A stretch of DNA of 64,000 nucleotides from Burkholderiaceae bacterium (lineage in GTDB: Bacteria > Pseudomonadota > Gammaproteobacteria > Burkholderiales > Burkholderiaceae_A). Shown here piece by piece: positions 55,753 through 64,000 of this stretch. The stretch lies in NCBI GenBank assembly GCA_049426285.1, contig JBMSYB010000004.1, forward strand, positions 3,800-67,799. Reading direction: 5' to 3'. The notes beneath the pieces are model-generated. The model saw only the letters and a program-made list of their open reading frames with translations, made no database searches and was not told the origin of the DNA. Position 1 is the first letter of the stretch, and every line of letters begins with the position of its first letter. A program made the position numbers and the translations under genes.

Positions 55753-56457
55753 CTACAGCACTAGGTTCTGGGCTTCACGGGCGCGGTAGAGCATATCAAG
55801 AGTGATTTTTCGTACCTCGATTTTGCTTTGTTCAATATGAGCCGAGAGTAGCCGCTGCGATTCTTCGCTGCGCCGGGCCTCTAAAGCCTTCACTATGAGG
55901 CCGTGCTCGGTGTAGGTGGCGTCGATGCGGTGCTCTTTGGTGAAGTCAAGCCGCCGCACAATGCGAATTCTTTCGGTGATCTCGCGGTGGGTCTTGGTGA
56001 TCTCTGAATTACCCGCAAGGGCAACGAGTTCCTGGTGAAAAGACTCATCGAGCATACCTACCCGTTTGGCATCTTTAATGCGATCCGCTGGCTTGACTCG
56101 CCATATCTTTGAGAGCGCTGTCAGGCCAGGCCGAGGGCCTTCGATGAGACAGACCATACGAGCCGCGAAGCACTCAAGCAGAATACGAAAGTCATAAAGC
56201 GCATCTAACCGCTCGAAGCGAAGCGGTGGAATCATCCACCCCACCTTGGGCTGTGCCTCTACAAAGCCTTCATGCTGCAGACGCTGAAGGGCCTGACGCA
56301 GGGGCGTGCGACTCAGACCCAGCGACTCTGCAAGCTCGGATTCCGAGAGCCGATCACCGGGCATAAAGCCAAAGTCGAAGATTCGCTCCTTTAGGCTGCG
56401 ATAGGCCTGATCGGCCAGAGACTCGCCTGCGGGAGGAATGTGAAGAAGTCTGGGCAT
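55753..56457 (-). CDS. GntR family regulator (FCD domain)
   Basis: PGDRLSESELAESLGLSRTPLRQALQRL HTH, with LDESFH and EHGLI in the FCD domain. Confidence 0.92.
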   Translation of the reverse strand: MPRLLHIPPAGESLADQAYRSLKERIFDFGFMPGDRLSESELAESLGLSRTPLRQALQRLQHEGFVEAQPKVGWMIPPLRFERLDALYDFRILLECFAARMVCLIEGPRPGLTALSKIWRVKPADRIKDAKRVGMLDESFHQELVALAGNSEITKTHREITERIRIVRRLDFTKEHRIDATYTEHGLIVKALEARRSEESQRLLSAHIEQSKIEVRKITLDMLYRAREAQNLVL

Positions 56458-56495
56458 AGGGATTGGGGTGTGGGGGTCAGAACCTAAAGCGATGC

Positions 56496-58319
56496 TTAGA
56501 CCGCAGAGCCCGACTCTACGAAAGACCGCCAGCCGCCGAAATGGGTAATTTCCATAGCGTCGTCAAGCGCAACCGGCTCGCAGATAAACCCCTTTACCCA
56601 GCTGCCATCGCTGAGTTCGATATTGCCGAGTCCCAGTGGATGGGGAATCTGGGCGAGAAAGGGGCCGACCGAGGCCAAAGGAAAGTCATAGACCTCAACG
56701 GAAATGCTCGCTCCCCCACTGGTGACGCGTCTGAGCCCGGGCTTGGGCGGCGCGGTCTGCCGCAGGGCATACAGGGTGTAATGGGCTGCAGTCTGGCAGC
56801 TGGCACGCAGACTGGCCCCTGCCTGCTCTACCTGCCAATGCAGGGGCATTCCTTTGAGGTGCGCTCCCACCATGGCAATAGGAATCGACTGACTGGGGGG
56901 CAGCCACCGTGGCCCACTGCTGTCGGTGTCATCGGTGGCAGATTCTTTCAGATACCAGCCGACTGGGCACTGCGCGGCCCGCTGCCAGTCATGACCTACG
57001 TTGAGTAAGGCATGGTCGTGGCCTCCGGGGGCGACTAGGGTGATGCCAAACGGAAGACCCGCCGGGGTAATCGACGCAGGCAGGGCCAGCGCGGACCATC
57101 CGAGCAGGTTGACAAAGTTGGTGTAGGCACCGAGCGCGGCGTTGGCAGAAATGGGTGCTTCACGTATCTGTTGCAGGCTGGGGAGTTCGGGGGCCGTGGG
57201 AAGAAACAGCAGGTCGATATCGGAAAAAATCTGCGCGGCTAAGACCGCAAGTTCCCGCAGTCGGTAGTGTGCTTCAAAGGCCTGCTGCGCGGAAAACTGG
57301 GCGCCTTTGCGCACAATAGCCGAAACACTGGGATCCAGGTCAGGCCGTTGCTCGTCTAGCAGCGGTCTGATGACGCTGTAGCGTTCGGCCACCCACGGGC
57401 CCTCGTACAGAAGTGCGGCGGTCTCATCGAGTGGTGTCATGTCGATTGGGTTAAGCTGCCAGCCCAGTGCCTCCGCCTTTGTAAGTGCTGCCGCATAGGC
57501 CTGTTGGTAGTCATGGGAACTCAGAATGGGTGCCTTCGGCACCCCGATGCGCAGCGGCGTAGGCATGGCAAATCGCGGTGTCACTGGGGCAGAGTGGAAC
57601 TGTGGCTCCTTTGCTCTTACGGCCTCGGGTGTCTGGGCGGCCCGCAGCACCAATGCGGCGTCTTGCACGGTGAGGGTAAAAAAAGAGACAACATCCAGTG
57701 TCTTGCAGGCAGGCAGAACCCCCTGTGTGCTGACCAGCCCTGGTGTTGGTTTGGTTCCTACCAGGTTGCAGAACCCTGCGGGTATCCTCCCGGACCCTGC
57801 GGTATCGGTACCCAGCGCAAAACATACAAGACCGCGTGAGACCAAGGAGGCAGACCCCGAGCTTGAGCCTCCGCTAATGTAGTCTGGGTGGAAAGGGTTG
57901 GGAACCGCCCCATAAGGAGACCGGGTGCCGACAAGCCCTGTAGCAAACTGATCGAGATTGGTCTTTGCAAGCAGAATGGCCCCCGCTGCCTGCAGCTGTG
58001 CGACGACCGTTGCGGTTTGCTGTGCAATGTAACGATACGAAGGGCAGGCCGCAGTGGTGGGCCAGCCCGCGACGTCAATATTGTCTTTGATGGCAAAGGG
58101 CACCCCATATAAGGGCAGGCTCTTAGGGCTCTTGCCCGCGAGCTGGTCAAGCTGCACCTGCACCTGCTCCCAGCTTGGAATAAAAATAATGGCTGTATCG
58201 CCTTGGGGGCCAACACTGCACTCGTTAATCGCATTCCATTGCTGGCGAATATGCGTTTCGACGGAGAGCCCTACAGCATAGGCAGACAAGAGGTCGGTAA
58301 TCGTGTGGAGGTTTTTCAT
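56496..58319 (-). CDS. atzF: Allophanate hydrolase (amidase plus C-terminal domain)
   Basis: GVPFAIKDNID, KTNLDQFATGLVGTRSPYG, GGSSSGSA, GTDTAGSGRIPA, YTNFVNL, and C-terminal VGAHL.GMPL...GWVKGFICE...FGGWR. Its ATG overlaps the ABC ATPase stop. Confidence 0.92.
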   Translation of the reverse strand: MKNLHTITDLLSAYAVGLSVETHIRQQWNAINECSVGPQGDTAIIFIPSWEQVQVQLDQLAGKSPKSLPLYGVPFAIKDNIDVAGWPTTAACPSYRYIAQQTATVVAQLQAAGAILLAKTNLDQFATGLVGTRSPYGAVPNPFHPDYISGGSSSGSASLVSRGLVCFALGTDTAGSGRIPAGFCNLVGTKPTPGLVSTQGVLPACKTLDVVSFFTLTVQDAALVLRAAQTPEAVRAKEPQFHSAPVTPRFAMPTPLRIGVPKAPILSSHDYQQAYAAALTKAEALGWQLNPIDMTPLDETAALLYEGPWVAERYSVIRPLLDEQRPDLDPSVSAIVRKGAQFSAQQAFEAHYRLRELAVLAAQIFSDIDLLFLPTAPELPSLQQIREAPISANAALGAYTNFVNLLGWSALALPASITPAGLPFGITLVAPGGHDHALLNVGHDWQRAAQCPVGWYLKESATDDTDSSGPRWLPPSQSIPIAMVGAHLKGMPLHWQVEQAGASLRASCQTAAHYTLYALRQTAPPKPGLRRVTSGGASISVEVYDFPLASVGPFLAQIPHPLGLGNIELSDGSWVKGFICEPVALDDAMEITHFGGWRSFVESGSAV

Positions 58320-60094
58320 TCTTTTGTGTCTTGGAGAAAACGGGGTGCGGCCGCAAGCAGCGTCTTGGTGTAGTCGTGTTGCGGCGCATGAAACACCTGG
58401 TGCGTCGGGCCGGATTCGACAATGCGGCCGGACTGCATCACGATGACGCGGTCGCAGAGCAGTCGCACGACTTCCAGGTCGTGACTGACAAACAGATAAG
58501 ACATTCCGAGGTCTGCCTTGAGGTCTGCAAGCAGGTTCAGTACCACCGCCTGTACAGACACATCGAGCGCTGCTGTGGGCTCATCAAGAATGAGCAGCTC
58601 TGGGCGGCTTGCCAAGGCTCGGGCGATGCCTACGCGCGCCTTTTGCCCCCCCGACAACTGGTGCGGAAGACGGCTTAAGAGCTCTGTCTCAAGCCCCACC
58701 TGCTCGGCGAGCTTTCGCACCTCCGTATGAATCTGATCCCGCGATGAGAGGTTCAGCAAATGGATGAGGGGGTCTGCGATTGACTGCTCAGCGGTTGCTC
58801 GGGGGTTGAGGCTCTCTGTGGGGTCTTGGAAGACCATCTGTATCTGTGCCCGCATCGGAGACTGCGTGAACTGGTCGCTGCGTATAAGGCTGAGGTCTTT
58901 TCCCTTAAACCAGATGCTGCCATCGGTGGGTTCGAGCAGTCGTGCGATCATGGCCGAGGTGGTGGACTTACCGCAGCCAGACTCGCCAACTAGCCCCACA
59001 CTCTCGCCAGGAAACACCTGAAAGCCAATGCGGTCTACGGCGAGAAAGGGGGCAGGCTGCCTGCGGTGCAGCCAGTCTCCCAGGCCTCGCGCCCTTGGAA
59101 ACGCTTTAACCAGATCGACCACGTCGAGCAAGGGAACCGCTGTCTTCGTTGTGCTGGCAGGGGCAGGGGCAGGAGCAGAGGCCACACTCGGGGCCGAATC
59201 AAGGGCCGTACCAGAGTCTAAGTCAGGGGCGACTTCGGGTCGTTCGGGCGGTCGTTTAGCCCGCTGTAAGCCCTCATCTGGCAGCAGTTCTCTAAGACTC
59301 TGCGCATGATGCGGTGTTGCCTTTACCAGCTTGCGTGTGTAGGGATGCTGGGGCCGCAGAAAGATATCTTGGGCCTGGCCACTTTCGACCACCAGGCCAC
59401 GCTCCATCACGATAATGGTGTCGCAGTATTCGCCCGCAAGACCAAGGTCATGGGTGATCAGAATAGAAGCCATGCCACTTTCGCGGGTGAGGTTGCGAAT
59501 AAGGTCCATGACAGTTCGTTGGGTGGTGACATCCAGCCCTGTGGTGGGCTCATCAGCAATGAGAATCTGCGGCTTACAGGCCAAGGCCATGGCAATTACG
59601 ATCCGCTGGCACATTCCGCCGGACAGCTCGAACGGGTAGGCGTGGTAGCGCTCCTCGGGGTTACGAATCTGCACCCGCTGCAGTGCCTCGATTGCCTTGT
59701 GCCGTGCGGATGCCCGGGTGGCCTGGGCATGCTCAATGAGCACGTCGGAGATCTGCTGCCCCACGGTACGAATGGGATTCAGGGCTGCCCGGGGGTTCTG
59801 AAAGATCATCGAGATCTCTCGCCCGCGTAGTTCGTTCATCACCGATTCAGAAGCCTGGTCGAGGCGTATGCCGCCGAAGACCGCAGACCCGGATGCGATG
59901 ATCCCCGCGCGGTCGAGAATCCGCATGATGGCGTAGGAGGTTACCGACTTGCCGGACCCCGACTCGCCCACGATGCCAATGGTCTGCCCCTTGCGCAGCG
60001 TGAATGAGACATCCCGAACCGCATCCACCGTGCCACGGCGGGTGCGAAACTGCACCGATAGCTGCTGCACCGATAAAAGAGCGGGACCAGACAT
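58316..60094 (-). CDS. Peptide/nickel-type ABC transporter, fused double ATPase
   Basis: Two GESGSGKS/GESGCGKS motifs, LSGGMCQR and LSGGQKAR, two HPYT-like tails. Confidence 0.93.
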   Translation of the reverse strand: MSGPALLSVQQLSVQFRTRRGTVDAVRDVSFTLRKGQTIGIVGESGSGKSVTSYAIMRILDRAGIIASGSAVFGGIRLDQASESVMNELRGREISMIFQNPRAALNPIRTVGQQISDVLIEHAQATRASARHKAIEALQRVQIRNPEERYHAYPFELSGGMCQRIVIAMALACKPQILIADEPTTGLDVTTQRTVMDLIRNLTRESGMASILITHDLGLAGEYCDTIIVMERGLVVESGQAQDIFLRPQHPYTRKLVKATPHHAQSLRELLPDEGLQRAKRPPERPEVAPDLDSGTALDSAPSVASAPAPAPASTTKTAVPLLDVVDLVKAFPRARGLGDWLHRRQPAPFLAVDRIGFQVFPGESVGLVGESGCGKSTTSAMIARLLEPTDGSIWFKGKDLSLIRSDQFTQSPMRAQIQMVFQDPTESLNPRATAEQSIADPLIHLLNLSSRDQIHTEVRKLAEQVGLETELLSRLPHQLSGGQKARVGIARALASRPELLILDEPTAALDVSVQAVVLNLLADLKADLGMSYLFVSHDLEVVRLLCDRVIVMQSGRIVESGPTHQVFHAPQHDYTKTLLAAAPRFLQDTKE

Positions 60095-60118
60095 GGGATA
60101 GGAATGCCGAGGGGGAAC

Positions 60119-60964
60119 TTAGGTTCTGCGGGCGGGATCAACGAGGTCACGAAGCCCGTCGCCCATGAGGTTGAAGGTAAAGACGGCAATCATCAGTGCC
60201 AGCCCCGGAAAGAGGGCGAGCCACCACTCGCCCGAGACGATATAGCTTGCCCCTTCGGCCACCATGATTCCCCATTCGGGTGTGGGCGGCCGAACGCCAA
60301 GCCCGATAAACGAAAGCCCTGCCGCATTCAAAATCGCCCAGCCCATATTGAGCGAGATCTGCACCATCATTGGGGGCAGAATATTGGGAACCACCCGGGC
60401 AAATAGAATACGGGCATCGTGATTGCCGGAAAGCTTGGCTGCCATCACCCAGCCTGCGTTTCGCCGAATGGATACCTCTGCCCGTGCAACACGTGCATAG
60501 AACGGCAGATTGATAATGGCCGTAGCGATCACAATGTTTTCAATCGTGTTCCCCGAGGCGGCCACGATGCCCATGGCAAGCACAAAGAGCGGAAATGCCA
60601 TGATGGTATCGAGCAGTCGGCCAAGAATACGGTCGGTCCAGCCACCCCAGAAACCGGACACAGCGCCCAGGGCGGTTCCCACAAAAAACGACAAGGCGAC
60701 CGCGCTAAATGAGATCAACAGGTCGAGCCGTGTTGCCACCACGACTCGGGAAAAGACATCGCGGCCAACCTGATCCGTGCCGAACCAGTGCTGAAGGCTT
60801 GGGGGCTTGAGTGCACCTGTGGCCGCGCTAGCCAAGGGATCATAGGGCACCAGCGAGGGTCCAAAAATCGCAACCAGCAGCATGACTGCAAAGAGGCTAA
60901 AGGCCAGTAAGGTTACTGGGTTGCTCACCAGCACATATCGAAGATGCTGAAAGAAACTAACCAT
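60119..60964 (-). CDS. ABC transporter permease (DppC-like)
   Basis: HWFGTDQVGRDVFSR, NILPP, AAGLSFIGLGVRPPTPEWG, FNLMGDGLRD. Confidence 0.93.
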   Translation of the reverse strand: MVSFFQHLRYVLVSNPVTLLAFSLFAVMLLVAIFGPSLVPYDPLASAATGALKPPSLQHWFGTDQVGRDVFSRVVVATRLDLLISFSAVALSFFVGTALGAVSGFWGGWTDRILGRLLDTIMAFPLFVLAMGIVAASGNTIENIVIATAIINLPFYARVARAEVSIRRNAGWVMAAKLSGNHDARILFARVVPNILPPMMVQISLNMGWAILNAAGLSFIGLGVRPPTPEWGIMVAEGASYIVSGEWWLALFPGLALMIAVFTFNLMGDGLRDLVDPARRT

Positions 60965-61976
60965 CGATTTTCAGCCGAGGGTCAATCAGTGTGTAAGCAA
61001 TGTCAACGCAGAGGTTGAGCAACACAAACAAAACGGCCATGGCCAGTACAAAACCTTGTACAGCGGCATAGTCGGAGGCAACCAATGCCTCTATTGCATA
61101 AGAGCCAATGCCGGGCCAGCTAAATACCTTTTCAACCAGGACATTGGCCCCCAGAGAAAAGGAAAAGACCATACCCAGCGTTGTCACCACAGGAAGCAGG
61201 GCATTACGCAGGGCATAACTAAAAAGAATTTTTGCTGAGCGCAGGCCGCAGGCCTTCGCGGTGCGGATGAAATCCGAGCCCAACGCCTGCAGCATCGAGG
61301 CCCGGGTCATACGCGCCAGTGGGGCCAAGGTAAACAGCGCCAGGGTAATCGACGGTAGCGCAAGCTGCTTCATCGCAGACCAGGCGGTCTGCCACTCCCC
61401 CGCCAAGGGCGCATCAATCAAATAAAAGCCAGTGACATGGGGAGGCGGCAAGGAGACGATATCGATTCGCCCCAAGGGCGTTGGCGCAATTCCCAACAGG
61501 TAATAAAAGACATAGACCAGGACCAGGCCGGTGAAGAACGTGGGAAGACTCACCCCTGCCGTGACAACGAAACGGCAGAGCTGGTCAACCCAGGTGTCTT
61601 GCTTGAGTGCAGCCAGAACGCCGAGTGGCACTGCAATTGAAACAGAAAGGATAAGCGCTACCAAGGTAAGTTCGAGAGAAGCCGGCAGTCGCTGCGCCAG
61701 ATCGGCGATCACTGGCTGGCCTGTCGATAAAGACTGACCAAGGTTGCCGCGCATGAGGTCAGCAAGATAATTTAAAAACTGAATGGGTAAGGGCTGATCC
61801 AGGCCAAGCTGCGCCCGAACCTCTGCAATCGATTCTGTGGTTGCTGCCGGGCCTGCAAAGAACGCGGCCGGATCCCCGGGCAGCGCCCGGGTCATCAAAA
61901 AGGTCACCACCAGAATCCCTAGCAGGGTTGGCAGTGCCTGACCCAGGCGACTGAGGACCACAATCAAACGAGACAT
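60957..61976 (-). CDS. ABC transporter permease (DppB-like)
   Basis: LPGDPA, GLDQPL..QF..YL, RLPASLEL, FIRTAKACGL, YALRNA, VEKVFSWPGIG. Confidence 0.93.
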   Translation of the reverse strand: MSRLIVVLSRLGQALPTLLGILVVTFLMTRALPGDPAAFFAGPAATTESIAEVRAQLGLDQPLPIQFLNYLADLMRGNLGQSLSTGQPVIADLAQRLPASLELTLVALILSVSIAVPLGVLAALKQDTWVDQLCRFVVTAGVSLPTFFTGLVLVYVFYYLLGIAPTPLGRIDIVSLPPPHVTGFYLIDAPLAGEWQTAWSAMKQLALPSITLALFTLAPLARMTRASMLQALGSDFIRTAKACGLRSAKILFSYALRNALLPVVTTLGMVFSFSLGANVLVEKVFSWPGIGSYAIEALVASDYAAVQGFVLAMAVLFVLLNLCVDIAYTLIDPRLKIDG

Positions 61977-61998
61977 ATCGAACCCGGCCGGTAATACC

Positions 61999-63609
61999 TT
62001 AGAGCTTCAACGATCGGGCATCCACCTGGCGGTGGTACCAGAAGGTGTAGCCTGTGAGCTTTTGCGCCATGGCGGATTCCAGCGTAGGCTGCCAGAGTGC
62101 TATACGTGGCAGGTCTTCAAATGCTTTTTCGATTAGCTGGCGAATCTTGGGCGCATAGGCAGGATCGCTAGGCTCCATGTGCAAGGTCTCGTTGACCAGC
62201 TGTCTAACGGTCTGATCGTCGTAGTTCGATGCGTTAAAGAGGTTCTCTTTCAGGTAGGAGTAGTAGAAGTAATAGCACGGCGTATTAAGCCAGCCACCGA
62301 AGTTTTCCAACAGGAAGGGAAACTTCTTCTCAACGAGTGCAAGGGTTCGCCAGTTTGCGCCGGGGACCTTATCCAGCGATACCTTGATTCCGATTTTTCC
62401 AAGGCTTTCCTGAATCAACAAGGCGGTGGGCTCTCCCCAGTCTGCCTCGCCGAGGTCAAACGACAATGGCACCTCAAAGCCCTTGGGGAACTTGCTCTTA
62501 CTGAGCAAGGCTCTTGCCTGATCAAGGTTCGTGTTGTAGGGGAAGGGCTGTGGCCATGCAATGCTGGAAGGCTTTGCTGACTTCGCTCCCCACATCGGCA
62601 CGCCTCGGCCAAATGCGGCCTGATCAAAAATCTGTTGATAGGGGATGGCAAAGGCCACTGCCTTGCGAACATTCGAATCCTGAAAGGGCTCAAAGTTGTA
62701 GTTCAGGCAGGCCACATAGAGGCAGTTGTCAATCGGCGAGCCCACCACCTTAACCTTTGCATTGCTTGCAAGCTCCTGCGCGTCTTTGTTGGGTATCTGG
62801 AAGCTCAGCTGAACATCACCGCGCTCAATGAGCGCCCTGCGTGTGGACTGCGAGGGCACCTCGCGAATAATGACTCGGCGTATCGCTGGCTTAGGCCCAC
62901 CCGCCCAGTCATCGTTTCGCACATAGACAAGCTGCTGGCCTGCGTCCCAGCGTTCTACCTTGTAAGCGCCACTGCCCTGGGGGTTTGTGTGTAGGAACTC
63001 AGCCGCCCAGGGGTCGGCAGCCGTGGCTTTCGCCTTGGCCGCCTTGGAATTGATTACGACCGCGACAGGCACTGCCAGATTTGGCAGCGAGAGCTTGGAG
63101 GGCTGCTTTAAATTCACCTGAAAAGTTTTCGGATCGACCACTACGAACTGACCCGGATCCACGAATCCGCCCGCGCCCATCTGAAATCGTGGGAAGCCGC
63201 CAAGCGCGAGCGCGCGATCGTAAGACCATTTCACATCCTCTGCGGTGACCGGACTTCCATCCCAGAACTGGGCATTGGCCTTAATCTTGAAGGTGATGGT
63301 CTTGCGGTCTGGGCTGATCGTCCAGCTCTCGGCAAGCTCTGGAACCACCTTGCTGTAATCGAATGACAAAGAGCCATCTTTCAGGGTTCTGGTGCCAAAA
63401 CTCACCAGACGGTCATAGACATTTACTGCCACCTGATAACTGGGTCGGTTTGTGCCAGTGCGATGGATATCCAGGCTATTGATCGTATTGCCAATCACCA
63501 CCACAGCGGTATCGCCGGACTGTGCAAGTGCAGTGGACTTCAGAAAGGGCAGCATGGCAGCGCCAAGCGCGGCGCCAGAGGTGGTTTTCAGTAGATCACG
63601 GCGATTCAT
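61999..63609 (-). CDS. ABC transporter substrate-binding protein, family 5 (Tat signal)
   Basis: MNRRDLLK Tat signal, VYDRLV, PELAESW, FWDGSPVTAEDVKWS, GSGAYK, VRKAVAFAIPY. Start at ATG 63609 with AGGAG RBS. Confidence 0.92.
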   Translation of the reverse strand: MNRRDLLKTTSGAALGAAMLPFLKSTALAQSGDTAVVVIGNTINSLDIHRTGTNRPSYQVAVNVYDRLVSFGTRTLKDGSLSFDYSKVVPELAESWTISPDRKTITFKIKANAQFWDGSPVTAEDVKWSYDRALALGGFPRFQMGAGGFVDPGQFVVVDPKTFQVNLKQPSKLSLPNLAVPVAVVINSKAAKAKATAADPWAAEFLHTNPQGSGAYKVERWDAGQQLVYVRNDDWAGGPKPAIRRVIIREVPSQSTRRALIERGDVQLSFQIPNKDAQELASNAKVKVVGSPIDNCLYVACLNYNFEPFQDSNVRKAVAFAIPYQQIFDQAAFGRGVPMWGAKSAKPSSIAWPQPFPYNTNLDQARALLSKSKFPKGFEVPLSFDLGEADWGEPTALLIQESLGKIGIKVSLDKVPGANWRTLALVEKKFPFLLENFGGWLNTPCYYFYYSYLKENLFNASNYDDQTVRQLVNETLHMEPSDPAYAPKIRQLIEKAFEDLPRIALWQPTLESAMAQKLTGYTFWYHRQVDARSLKL

Positions 63610-63711
63610 TGTGGAGGCTCCTATAAACCCCATGGGGGTGGTGGCGAAGGGCCGATAGGAAAGACAGGGGGGTTGGCGTCTTATGAATACCTACCGGTAT
63701 ACAAGACGGTA

Positions 63712-63728
63712 TGCAGTATCTATGCCAA
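63712..63728 (-). promoter_or_regulatory. sigma54 (-24/-12) promoter of the ABC-atzF operon
   Basis: Minus strand TTGGCATAGATACTGCA has GG-N10-GC spacing and the TGGCA/TGC cores. Confidence 0.7.
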
Positions 63729-63811
63729 GAGGAAGAATGGCGAGCCCATGGGGTTCGCAGAGATAGTCTCCGAAGGCTTGCCACTAGGCTGCCCTATAAA
63801 CAGGCAGGTAT

Positions 63812-63849
63812 TGCACCAGACTAGCGCGATGCGGCGCGGCCCTGGTGCA
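63812..63849. promoter_or_regulatory. Two NtrC-type enhancer sites
   Basis: Perfect half-sites TGCACCA (63812-63818) and TGGTGCA (63843-63849), each with a degenerate partner. Site centres are 21 bp apart and about 120 and 140 bp upstream of the predicted start. Confidence 0.6.
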
Positions 63850-63908
63850 GCTGGTAGGTCAAGGTCACAAACTCGGCACGAACCCGTCCACTGGGCCCGC
63901 GATCTTTT

Positions 63909-64000
63909 CTAGAAAGCCGCTACGCCCCCGTTGGACCGCGGGTCGAATCCGCCTTCCAGAACGCCACTGGCATAACGCCGGATCATGCCTGCATGCCCGA
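63909..64000 (-). CDS. Gamma-glutamyltransferase / Ntn-hydrolase family, C-terminal end (partial)
   Basis: Manual translation GHAGMIRRYASGVLEGGFDPRSNGGVAAF* matches the GGT C-terminal G..DPR..G motif. Not in the ORF track. Confidence 0.8.
   Translation of the reverse strand, partial: GHAGMIRRYASGVLEGGFDPRSNGGVAAF

Follow-up and report, generated by a model that had tools for sequence, protein, structure and literature searches.

The last part of a 64,000-nucleotide (nt) stretch of DNA from a Burkholderiaceae bacterium (contig 4, positions 3800–67799, referred to below at its full length as the window; the source genome measures 2.16 Mb and is 96.9% complete) carries an operon of six tightly packed genes on the minus strand (55753–63633), which encode, in this order, a periplasmic substrate-binding protein (SBP), two permeases, a fused ATPase, the allophanate hydrolase AtzF and a GntR-type regulator. 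The pairing of this peptide-type ATP-binding cassette (ABC) importer with AtzF is a widespread conserved module and not a local oddity, and its recurrence across many aquatic Proteobacteria points to an uncharacterised small ureide as the imported nitrogen source. It is, in our view, highly probable that the operon is a nitrogen-regulated 'import, then AtzF' module; that the imported ligand is allophanate (urea-1-carboxylate), or a near-identical analogue, is a proposal that we make tentatively.

The importer–AtzF operon and its distribution

The operon contains the following genes:

61999–63633, minus strand: SBP_bac_5 family-5 periplasmic SBP (PF00496, 262 bits)
60957–61976, minus strand: DppB/OppB-type permease (PF00528 and PF19300), 58–85% identical across related loci
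60119–60964, minus strand: DppC/OppC-type permease (PF00528 and OppC_N), overlapping the DppB-like gene by 8 nt
58316–60094, minus strand: fused DppD–DppF double ABC ATPase of 592 amino acids (aa), with two ABC_tran and two oligo_HPY stretches
56496–58319, minus strand: AtzF, full-length allophanate hydrolase of 607 aa (TIGR02713, Amidase and AH_C, PF21986)
55753–56457, minus strand: GntR regulator with an FCD effector domain (PF00392 and PF07729), last gene of the operon

This gene order and these families had been stated in an original prediction made from the letters of the window, and domain and family profile matches agree with it; the ATGA overlap between the stop codon of the ATPase gene and the start codon of atzF, which had been read as translational coupling, is present in the sequence. 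The gntR gene is convergent with an ABC-F gene. The likelier start of the SBP is the ATG at 63609, which is preceded by AGGAG and opens a predicted Tat-type signal (MNRRDLLK...ALA/Q). The transporter has a PepT/Dpp/Opp-type build, with (i) a family-5 SBP, whose nearest solved relative is AgaA (6HLX, E 1e-40), (ii) two BPD_transp_1 permeases, one of them with OppC_N, and (iii) two ATPase domains with oligo_HPY. None of its components reached a named specificity family among the NCBIfam equivalogs (DppA, OppA, GsiB, NikA, opine binders), the SBP scoring 116 bits against a cut-off of 594 for GsiB, 92 against 393 for NikA and 69 against 1005 for DppA.

AtzF belongs to the allophanate hydrolase family, with a TIGR02713 score of 711.5 bits against an equivalog cut-off of 511.05, and a genome-wide scan agrees with this assignment. 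The protein is about 50% identical to GbAH (4GYR) and KlAH (4ISS) over both domains and matches 4CP8 at E 1.5e-94. Its AH_C domain (PF21986, 163.5 bits, residues 480–601) keeps the VGAHLKG motif; this domain processes N-carboxycarbamate and is useful only for the product of allophanate. More specifically, LLYEGPWVAERY of AtzF aligns with LLYGGPWVAERL of 4GYR, so that a Tyr/Arg pair is kept. After subtraction of the 29-residue tag, positions 328 and 336 of the 4GYR chain become 299 and 307 (an internal offset check), that is, Tyr299 and Arg307 of GbAH, which we take to be the pair that binds the carboxylate of allophanate. The same motif is kept in 38 of the 41 full-length SBP-linked AtzFs. Alignment with GbAH and KlAH indicates that the motifs of the Ser-cisSer-Lys amidase signature (KDNI, GGSSSGS and GTDTAGSGR) are likewise kept, and by an offset check the nucleophile falls on the position of Ser177 in KlAH, for which an S177A variant is cited (PMC5770610). 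Altogether, to judge from its sequence, AtzF retains every feature of allophanate specificity that was checked and looks like a real allophanate hydrolase.

A scan based on the SBP alignment, with one genome per species, gave the best 80 SBP-orthologue loci (45–86% SBP identity), which come from alpha-, beta- and gamma-proteobacteria and from cyanobacteria. A full-length AtzF with both domains lies beside the importer in 48 of these 80 loci; if only the clade of 57% or higher SBP identity is counted, the figure is, by our own tally, 38 of 46 informative loci. The rest of that clade is made up of six Marinobacter loci, which have a GntR and a GGT-family gene in place of AtzF, and of two loci with neither. 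The Marinobacter SBP clade (L036–L040, L049, L087) is nested inside the AtzF-linked clade; its GGT-family hydrolase is generic, being 35% identical to the GGT-family protein encoded next to our operon (see below) and not specifically HpxW-like, and a TauE/SafE-type exporter is present in four of the six loci. A more distant SBP clade adds AtzE-like and AtzH/HpxZ-like genes, and the cyanobacterial clade is without AtzF. Of 25 genomes of the source organism's genus, 4 have the SBP, and the same 4 have AtzF; the two belong to a single block flanked by purL/ABC-F on one side and a second ABC operon on the other. A GntR or LysR regulator accompanies the importer–AtzF module; orthologues of the local gntR follow AtzF in three loci (L027–L029) and also occur within related loci of two further genomes (G030, G039).

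The genomes that carry the module differ in their enzymes for making allophanate. Urea carboxylase was not seen in 39 of 41 module genomes and a BiuH/TrtA-like gene not in 18 of them (it is present in the other 23), and 12 of the 41, including four isolate genomes, showed none of urea carboxylase, BiuH/TrtA, AtzD and AtzH. Cultivated strains with the minimal form of the module include Roseicyclus mahoneyensis DSM 16097, Tropicimonas sp. S265A, Saccharospirillum alexandrii and Roseibium aggregatum. In Paracoccaceae loci, BiuH (6AZO, E 1e-121) and TrtA (6XIX, E 1e-84) are encoded in a neighbouring block with its own Bmp-type importer, and AtzF stays with the family-5 importer, not with that block. 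Note that in alphaproteobacterial loci (L043, L065, L070, L050–L066) a recurring block beside the module pairs a formamidase (NF009803, 574 bits) with an ABC importer of the Bmp/Nup type, to which a 2OG-Fe(II) oxygenase, BiuH, TrtA and a small cupin are often added.

The promoter region

Four elements were found on the minus strand upstream of the SBP gene:

63712–63727, minus strand: sigma-54 promoter TGGCATAGATACTGCA, TGGCAT-N5-CTGCA, with GG at −24 and GC at −12 (motif match and conservation)
63697–63714, minus strand: GCATAC-N6-GTATAC boxes, candidate GntR operator, over the −12 element and the predicted transcription start
63812–63849, minus strand: NtrC-type half-sites TGCACC (63844–63849) and GGTGCA (63812–63817), 26 nt apart and about 105 nt upstream of −24
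63789–63807, minus strand: inverted repeat CTGCCTGTTTATAGGGCAG with an AT-rich centre, between the NtrC-like half-sites and the promoter

Judged against the core reference for sigma-54 promoters (GG-N10-GC, TGGCAC-N5-TTGCA), the motif is not significant in the window alone, where 2 matches stand against 0.89 expected. It is conserved across loci, however: of 78 orthologous loci, 18 carry it ahead of the SBP gene, where a background of 0.006 per 350 nt would give about 0.5, and none of those with a divergent LysR does. Besides rpoN, the genome encodes a bona fide NtrC, which scores 673 bits where the cut-off is 559. It is one of only three sigma-54 activators found genome-wide; of the other two, one shares its contig with flagellar-looking promoters and one is uncharacterised. 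The conserved sigma-54 promoter, the presence of RpoN and NtrC and the small number of sigma-54 activators make nitrogen control of the operon plausible. In Rhizobiales, atzF is a predicted target of NtrC (PMC5343134).

The sigma-54 promoter announced in the original prediction is thus present and finds support in the orthologous loci. The two NtrC sites announced with it fared less well: they exist as half-sites and are kept in two congeners (G002 and G005) even though the spacer diverges there, but when they are extended to 17-mers and compared with the full-length consensus (TGCACC-N5-GGTGCA) in a scan of the window, each has three mismatches, which is the level expected by chance. Their reading as NtrC-type sites leans on the conservation of the half-sites. 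A near-consensus site, TGCACC-N5-GGTGCT, is found in two orthologous loci (L029 and L030). The inverted repeat CTGCCTGTTTATAGGGCAG, which has similar counterparts in the same two congeners, could be an IHF-type bending site or the site of another regulator.

The boxes at 63697–63714 lie where they had been predicted and are read here as GCATAC and GTATAC. TCTTGTATACCG, which directly follows the −12 element, is invariant in the beta-proteobacterial orthologues (G002, G005, L028–L030), and related palindromes occur in other loci of the GntR type, namely TGGTATACCA in L090 and L094 and TTGCATACAA in alpha-proteobacterial loci. The regulator consists of an N-terminal winged helix and an FCD domain; compared with the operator type of FadR/FCD proteins, a T.GT...AC.A palindrome, the GTATAC box is a candidate operator. 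A box that resembles it, TTGTATACCGG, lies on contig 76, 65 nt upstream of a gene for a luciferase-like monooxygenase (L144:4360–4372). This second TTGTATACC box was considered as a GntR operator and rejected as probably due to chance, since there are nine such 9-mers genome-wide. Guanidine-type riboswitches often precede genes for allophanate hydrolase and transporters; riboswitch control was rejected for this operon, as Rfam gave no match in the leader, which folds no better than shuffled sequence and has no unusual structure by that comparison.

Neighbouring genes and search for allophanate sources in the genome

The contig continues for 12 kb past the window. Upstream of the operon on the same strand lie, in this order, genes for a 247-aa racemase of the Asp/Glu/hydantoin family, a 427-aa M20 hydrolase and a 537-aa GGT-family protein, the M20 gene overlapping the GGT-family gene by 4 nt. 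One of them reaches into the window:

63909–64000, minus strand: 3' end of the HpxW-like GGT-family gene (last 92 bases in the window; 537 aa in total; PF01019, 419 bits)

The best solved relatives of the racemase are 3QVJ, 3QVK and 3QVL (E 1e-74), which we take to be the Klebsiella allantoin racemase HpxA, followed by 5LFD, deposited as 'allantoin racemase'. The stop codon of the GGT-family gene begins at 63909, 300 nt upstream of the likely SBP start, so that the extended contig confirms the spacing and strand that had been predicted. The likening of this protein to HpxW also holds: among solved structures it comes closest to 5HFT, whose two subunits match at E 7e-95 and 1e-80 (about 57% and 72% identity by eye), whereas the match to the GGT of E. 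coli is far weaker, at only E 1.7e-33. Thr351, the expected N-terminal nucleophile, falls on the first residue of the small 5HFT chain, and the protein, which has no signal peptide, is predicted to be cytoplasmic. 5HFT is the oxamate amidohydrolase HpxW of K. pneumoniae (PMC12360370). Compared to the purine-catabolic hpx genes of Klebsiella (HpxA racemase, HpxK allantoate amidohydrolase, HpxW oxamate amidohydrolase, HpxXYZ), the neighbours are similar in that HpxA-like and HpxW-like proteins are encoded together, with an M20 ureide hydrolase between them; they differ in that there is no HpxX, HpxY or HpxZ among them, that the M20 protein is nearer to N-carbamoyl-amino-acid hydrolases (carbamoylase type) than to AllC, and that the genes lie outside the AtzF operon. 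Thus, the hpxWXYZ context is not found here, where the HpxW-like gene follows the racemase and M20 genes, and HpxZ was not found in the genome.

A second family-5 ABC operon (L001:9636–16584) is transcribed away from these three genes; it ends in a gene for a 391-aa amidase of the PRK08310 type and is preceded, beyond the window, by a near-perfect sigma-54 promoter (TGGCACGTCGATTGCA, L001:9614–9629, plus strand) with an upstream GGTGCA half-site. Orthologues of its SBP in other Burkholderiales (76–82% identical) sit with genes for PuuE-like, M20, racemase-like and 391-aa-amidase proteins, and by virtue of the first three of these neighbours the second operon may encode an allantoin-type ureide importer. 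AtzF was not found in two near-complete genomes that carry the unit of second SBP and amidase. In four congeners (L121, L123 and L124, that is, G009, G017 and G019, and G023), an HpxW-like gene (66–72% identical) comes directly after DctP–DctQ–DctM; G023 was placed by its pattern of open reading frame sizes only, and Pfam was run on the G019 locus only. AtzF was not found in these four genomes, and the DctPQM and HpxW-like genes look like a scavenging unit made of a TRAP transporter and an oxamate amidohydrolase.

Taken together, the neighbours of the second-SBP orthologues, the carriers in which AtzF was not found and the TRAP-linked congeners indicate that the racemase–M20–HpxW genes are best grouped with the second operon into a unit of the allantoin/oxamate type, and the AtzF operon fits better as an independent module placed beside it. 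The adjacency of the GGT and the importer–AtzF operon given in the original prediction stands, with the refinement that the racemase–M20–HpxW genes look like a separate unit. For the same reasons, two candidates were rejected: the GGT as a part of the AtzF pathway, in view of the four congeners with the HpxW-like gene behind a TRAP transporter, and the 391-aa amidase as an allophanate-forming step, in view of the two near-complete genomes that have its unit and in which AtzF was not found. No terminator-like site was found between the HpxW-like gene and the AtzF operon, so read-through into the latter is possible.

A recognised source of allophanate was searched for in the whole genome. Urea carboxylase was not found genome-wide, the best TIGR02712 match (541 bits against a cut-off of 1304) covering the biotin-carboxylase part only. 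AtzD (PF09663) has no match in the genome, in a scan whose controls gave no signal either, though the same model does match 7 of the 41 other module genomes; AtzH/HpxZ (PF11533) has no match genome-wide. AtzG and AtzE were not found in the genome, and the two amidases scanned, one beside the locus and one on contig 29, score far below the AtzE cut-offs. A close BiuH or TrtA was not found either: the single isochorismatase-family gene, on contig 38, is about 20–27% identical to the BiuH and TrtA of related loci. This gene was rejected as a hidden BiuH on its identity of about 25% and on its neighbours, two PuuE-like genes and a gene for a branched-chain-type binding protein. Urease is present, so urea needs no AtzF.

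The genome also has a purine cluster (contig 13, 7050–16691; L117:1050–10691) with xdhABC, a PuuD-type urate oxidase, a PuuE allantoinase, a fusion of OHCU decarboxylase and M20, and HIU hydrolase. Ureidoglycine aminohydrolase and ureidoglycolate lyase were not found anywhere in the genome, which leaves the steps after ureidoglycine unaccounted for; an HpxW-type oxamate branch after ureidoglycine is possible. Four further PuuE-like paralogues of the polysaccharide-deacetylase type are encoded elsewhere (L118, L119, L144): two on contig 38, with the isochorismatase-family and binding-protein genes just mentioned, one on contig 29, about 4 kb from a gene for a 562-aa amidase, and one on contig 76, with a luciferase-like monooxygenase and a flavin reductase. 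The load of cyclic-amide hydrolases is unusual for a 2.16-Mb genome.

The original prediction had noted that urea carboxylase, AtzD/E and BiuH are missing from the window. This extends to the 12 kb past it and to the genome, and no urea carboxylase gene or atzDEH set was found just outside the window. Together with the conservation of the importer–AtzF pair, the failure to find these source enzymes supports the predicted uptake and hydrolysis of a ureide or carbamoyl compound.

Several known systems resemble the operon in part. The atzDGEHF cyanuric acid operon of Pseudomonas sp. ADP, which is controlled by nitrogen limitation through NtrC/sigma-54 and a dedicated regulator, also ends in AtzF; in our genome AtzD, AtzEG and AtzH were not found, the regulator is a GntR and not a LysR, and an importer is present. 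The urea amidolyase pathway (GbAH 4GYR, KlAH 4ISS, KlUA 5I8I) shares with it the two-domain enzyme, about 50% identical and with the catalytic and substrate-binding motifs kept; unlike in that pathway, urea carboxylase was not found in the genome and urea goes via urease. A public example of the gene order SBP–permease–permease–ATPase–atzF is on plasmid pSC52_3 of Rhodobacteraceae bacterium SC52 (CP049031.1); its SBP shares 62% identity with the local one, its annotations are generic only and a divergent LysR takes the place of GntR. Esquirol et al. 2018 (PMC6219798) noted beta-proteobacterial clusters of the form 'allophanate hydrolase – ABC transporter – atzG–atzE–atzH' and assigned them no substrate. 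Like our operon, they join AtzF to a peptide-type ABC importer (SBPs 45–50% identical to the local one) and have no AtzD; unlike in them, AtzG, AtzE and AtzH were not found here, and AtzF is the only enzyme of the operon, coupled to the ATPase gene. What is new here is the minimal, stand-alone importer–AtzF–GntR form, the breadth of lineages that have the module, its independence of urea carboxylase and its conserved sigma-54 promoter.

Nature of the imported compound

The operon could work as follows. Under nitrogen limitation, NtrC would activate the sigma-54 promoter from the upstream half-sites, and the FCD-type GntR, product of the operon's last gene, would occupy the GTATAC box across −12 and the start until its effector, presumably the substrate or the product, appears. 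The Tat-exported family-5 SBP and the Dpp-type ABC translocator would then import a small carboxylated ureide, and the cytoplasmic AtzF would convert allophanate to N-carboxycarbamate and on to 2 NH3 and 2 CO2. What is shown is the gene content with its coupling, the family of AtzF and its kept specificity residues, the conservation of promoter and importer–AtzF pair, and a genome in which known allophanate sources were not found; we infer the action of NtrC, that of GntR, the direction of transport and the identity of the ligand. Allophanate is the simplest ligand, because no enzyme other than AtzF is consistently linked with the importer and because stand-alone modules occur in genomes without a known allophanate source. 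With still more reserve, we suggest that the family-5 ABC system may be a dedicated high-affinity allophanate importer, and allophanate an exchanged nitrogen currency in aquatic communities, which many Proteobacteria would harvest through an AtzF independent of urea carboxylase.

Several points weigh against allophanate as the ligand and against control of the operon by NtrC. We know of no described allophanate transporter, and the ligands of family-5 SBPs are as a rule larger (peptides, opines, metal chelates). Some known allophanate-forming enzyme is present in 29 of the 41 module genomes, often next door, so the importer could there carry the entry compound (biuret, triuret) instead. The Marinobacter loci, in which a GGT and a TauE-type exporter replace AtzF, fit a ligand that is not strictly allophanate. 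On the regulatory side, the NtrC sites are weak as full sites, and the genome has a second, uncharacterised sigma-54 activator. The main objection, however, is chemical: allophanate is reported to be unstable under physiological conditions and to decay to urea and CO2 (PMC6219798), and this lability makes a standing environmental pool doubtful.

The importer could instead take up a neutral polyureide, such as biuret, triuret or a relative, which are chemically stable; a first hydrolase encoded elsewhere or belonging to an unrecognised family would act on this compound, and AtzF would be only the shared last enzyme. The triuret/biuret pathway trtA–trtB–biuH–atzF of Herbaspirillum and nitrifiers, which is accompanied by bmpA–nupABC, ends in AtzF as published (PMC7948467, PMC12625717), the module lies directly beside biuH and trtA in some Paracoccaceae, 23 of the 41 module genomes have a BiuH/TrtA-like gene, and AtzE-like and AtzH/HpxZ-like genes accompany the SBPs of the more distant clade. 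The adjacent BiuH and TrtA nevertheless bring their own Bmp-type ABC importer, whereas ours is of the family-5/Dpp type and not Bmp/Nup; close BiuH/TrtA, AtzE-type and AtzH proteins were not found in the source genome; 12 of the 41 module genomes show none of the known entry enzymes; and the unit of the local 391-aa amidase also occurs in the two genomes where AtzF was not found. On balance we consider a polyureide ligand rather unlikely. An ordinary peptide, glutathione or nickel importer, co-transcribed with an AtzF that clears endogenous allophanate as a nitrogen-stress enzyme, is very improbable. The best NCBIfam and PDB neighbours of the transporter are indeed GsiB, NikA and Dpp/Opp components, but all these matches are far below the family cut-offs, and on this ground and on gene context the nickel and glutathione readings were rejected; moreover, SBP and AtzF are linked across alpha-, beta- and gamma-proteobacteria at 45–86% SBP identity, a dedicated GntR or LysR accompanies the module, and an endogenous source of allophanate was not found in the genome.

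Oxalurate, or some other ureido acid that derives from purines and is longer than allophanate by one atom, could also be the ligand. In this case AtzF would replace HpxXYZ and yield oxamate, CO2 and NH3, and the HpxW-like enzyme would convert oxamate to oxalate and NH3. The HpxW-like gene, 300 nt upstream, does share its island with genes for an HpxA-like allantoin racemase and an M20 carbamoylase, and the genome degrades purines to allantoate/ureidoglycine while ureidoglycine aminohydrolase, ureidoglycolate lyase and HpxZ were not found in it. Moreover, GGT-family genes are linked to the SBP family in the genus itself, in Ferrovibrio (50–52% identical to the local GGT) and in Marinobacter; a TauE-type anion exporter, which could expel oxalate, is present in two of these three lineages; and the AtzH-like neighbour in the distant SBP clade is called HpxZ, 'oxalurate catabolism protein', by NCBIfam. 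Yet most loci with the module have no GGT nearby, AtzF was not found in the four congeners with an HpxW-like gene behind a TRAP transporter, and in our AtzF neither the Tyr/Arg pair that binds allophanate nor the C-terminal domain is altered. Oxalurate is known in yeast as an allophanate analogue that is not metabolised, which speaks against its hydrolysis by AtzF-type enzymes. An oxalurate-type ligand seems improbable, and allophanate or a near-identical analogue is the ligand that we tentatively retain.

Where an allophanate hydrolase occurs, its presence is usually accounted for by partner enzymes that supply the substrate, whether urea carboxylase, biuret hydrolase or AtzEGH. In this genome, and in no fewer than 12 others, AtzF occurs without such partners and is tied instead to an importer and a nitrogen-starvation promoter. 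The module is widespread, being found in freshwater Burkholderiales, marine Rhodobacterales, Roseibium, Saccharospirillum and others, and the present host is a small betaproteobacterium of the freshwater type. Identification of the ligand would add one compound to the dissolved organic nitrogen sources of aquatic bacteria, and would give a function to a large family now annotated "peptide ABC transporter".

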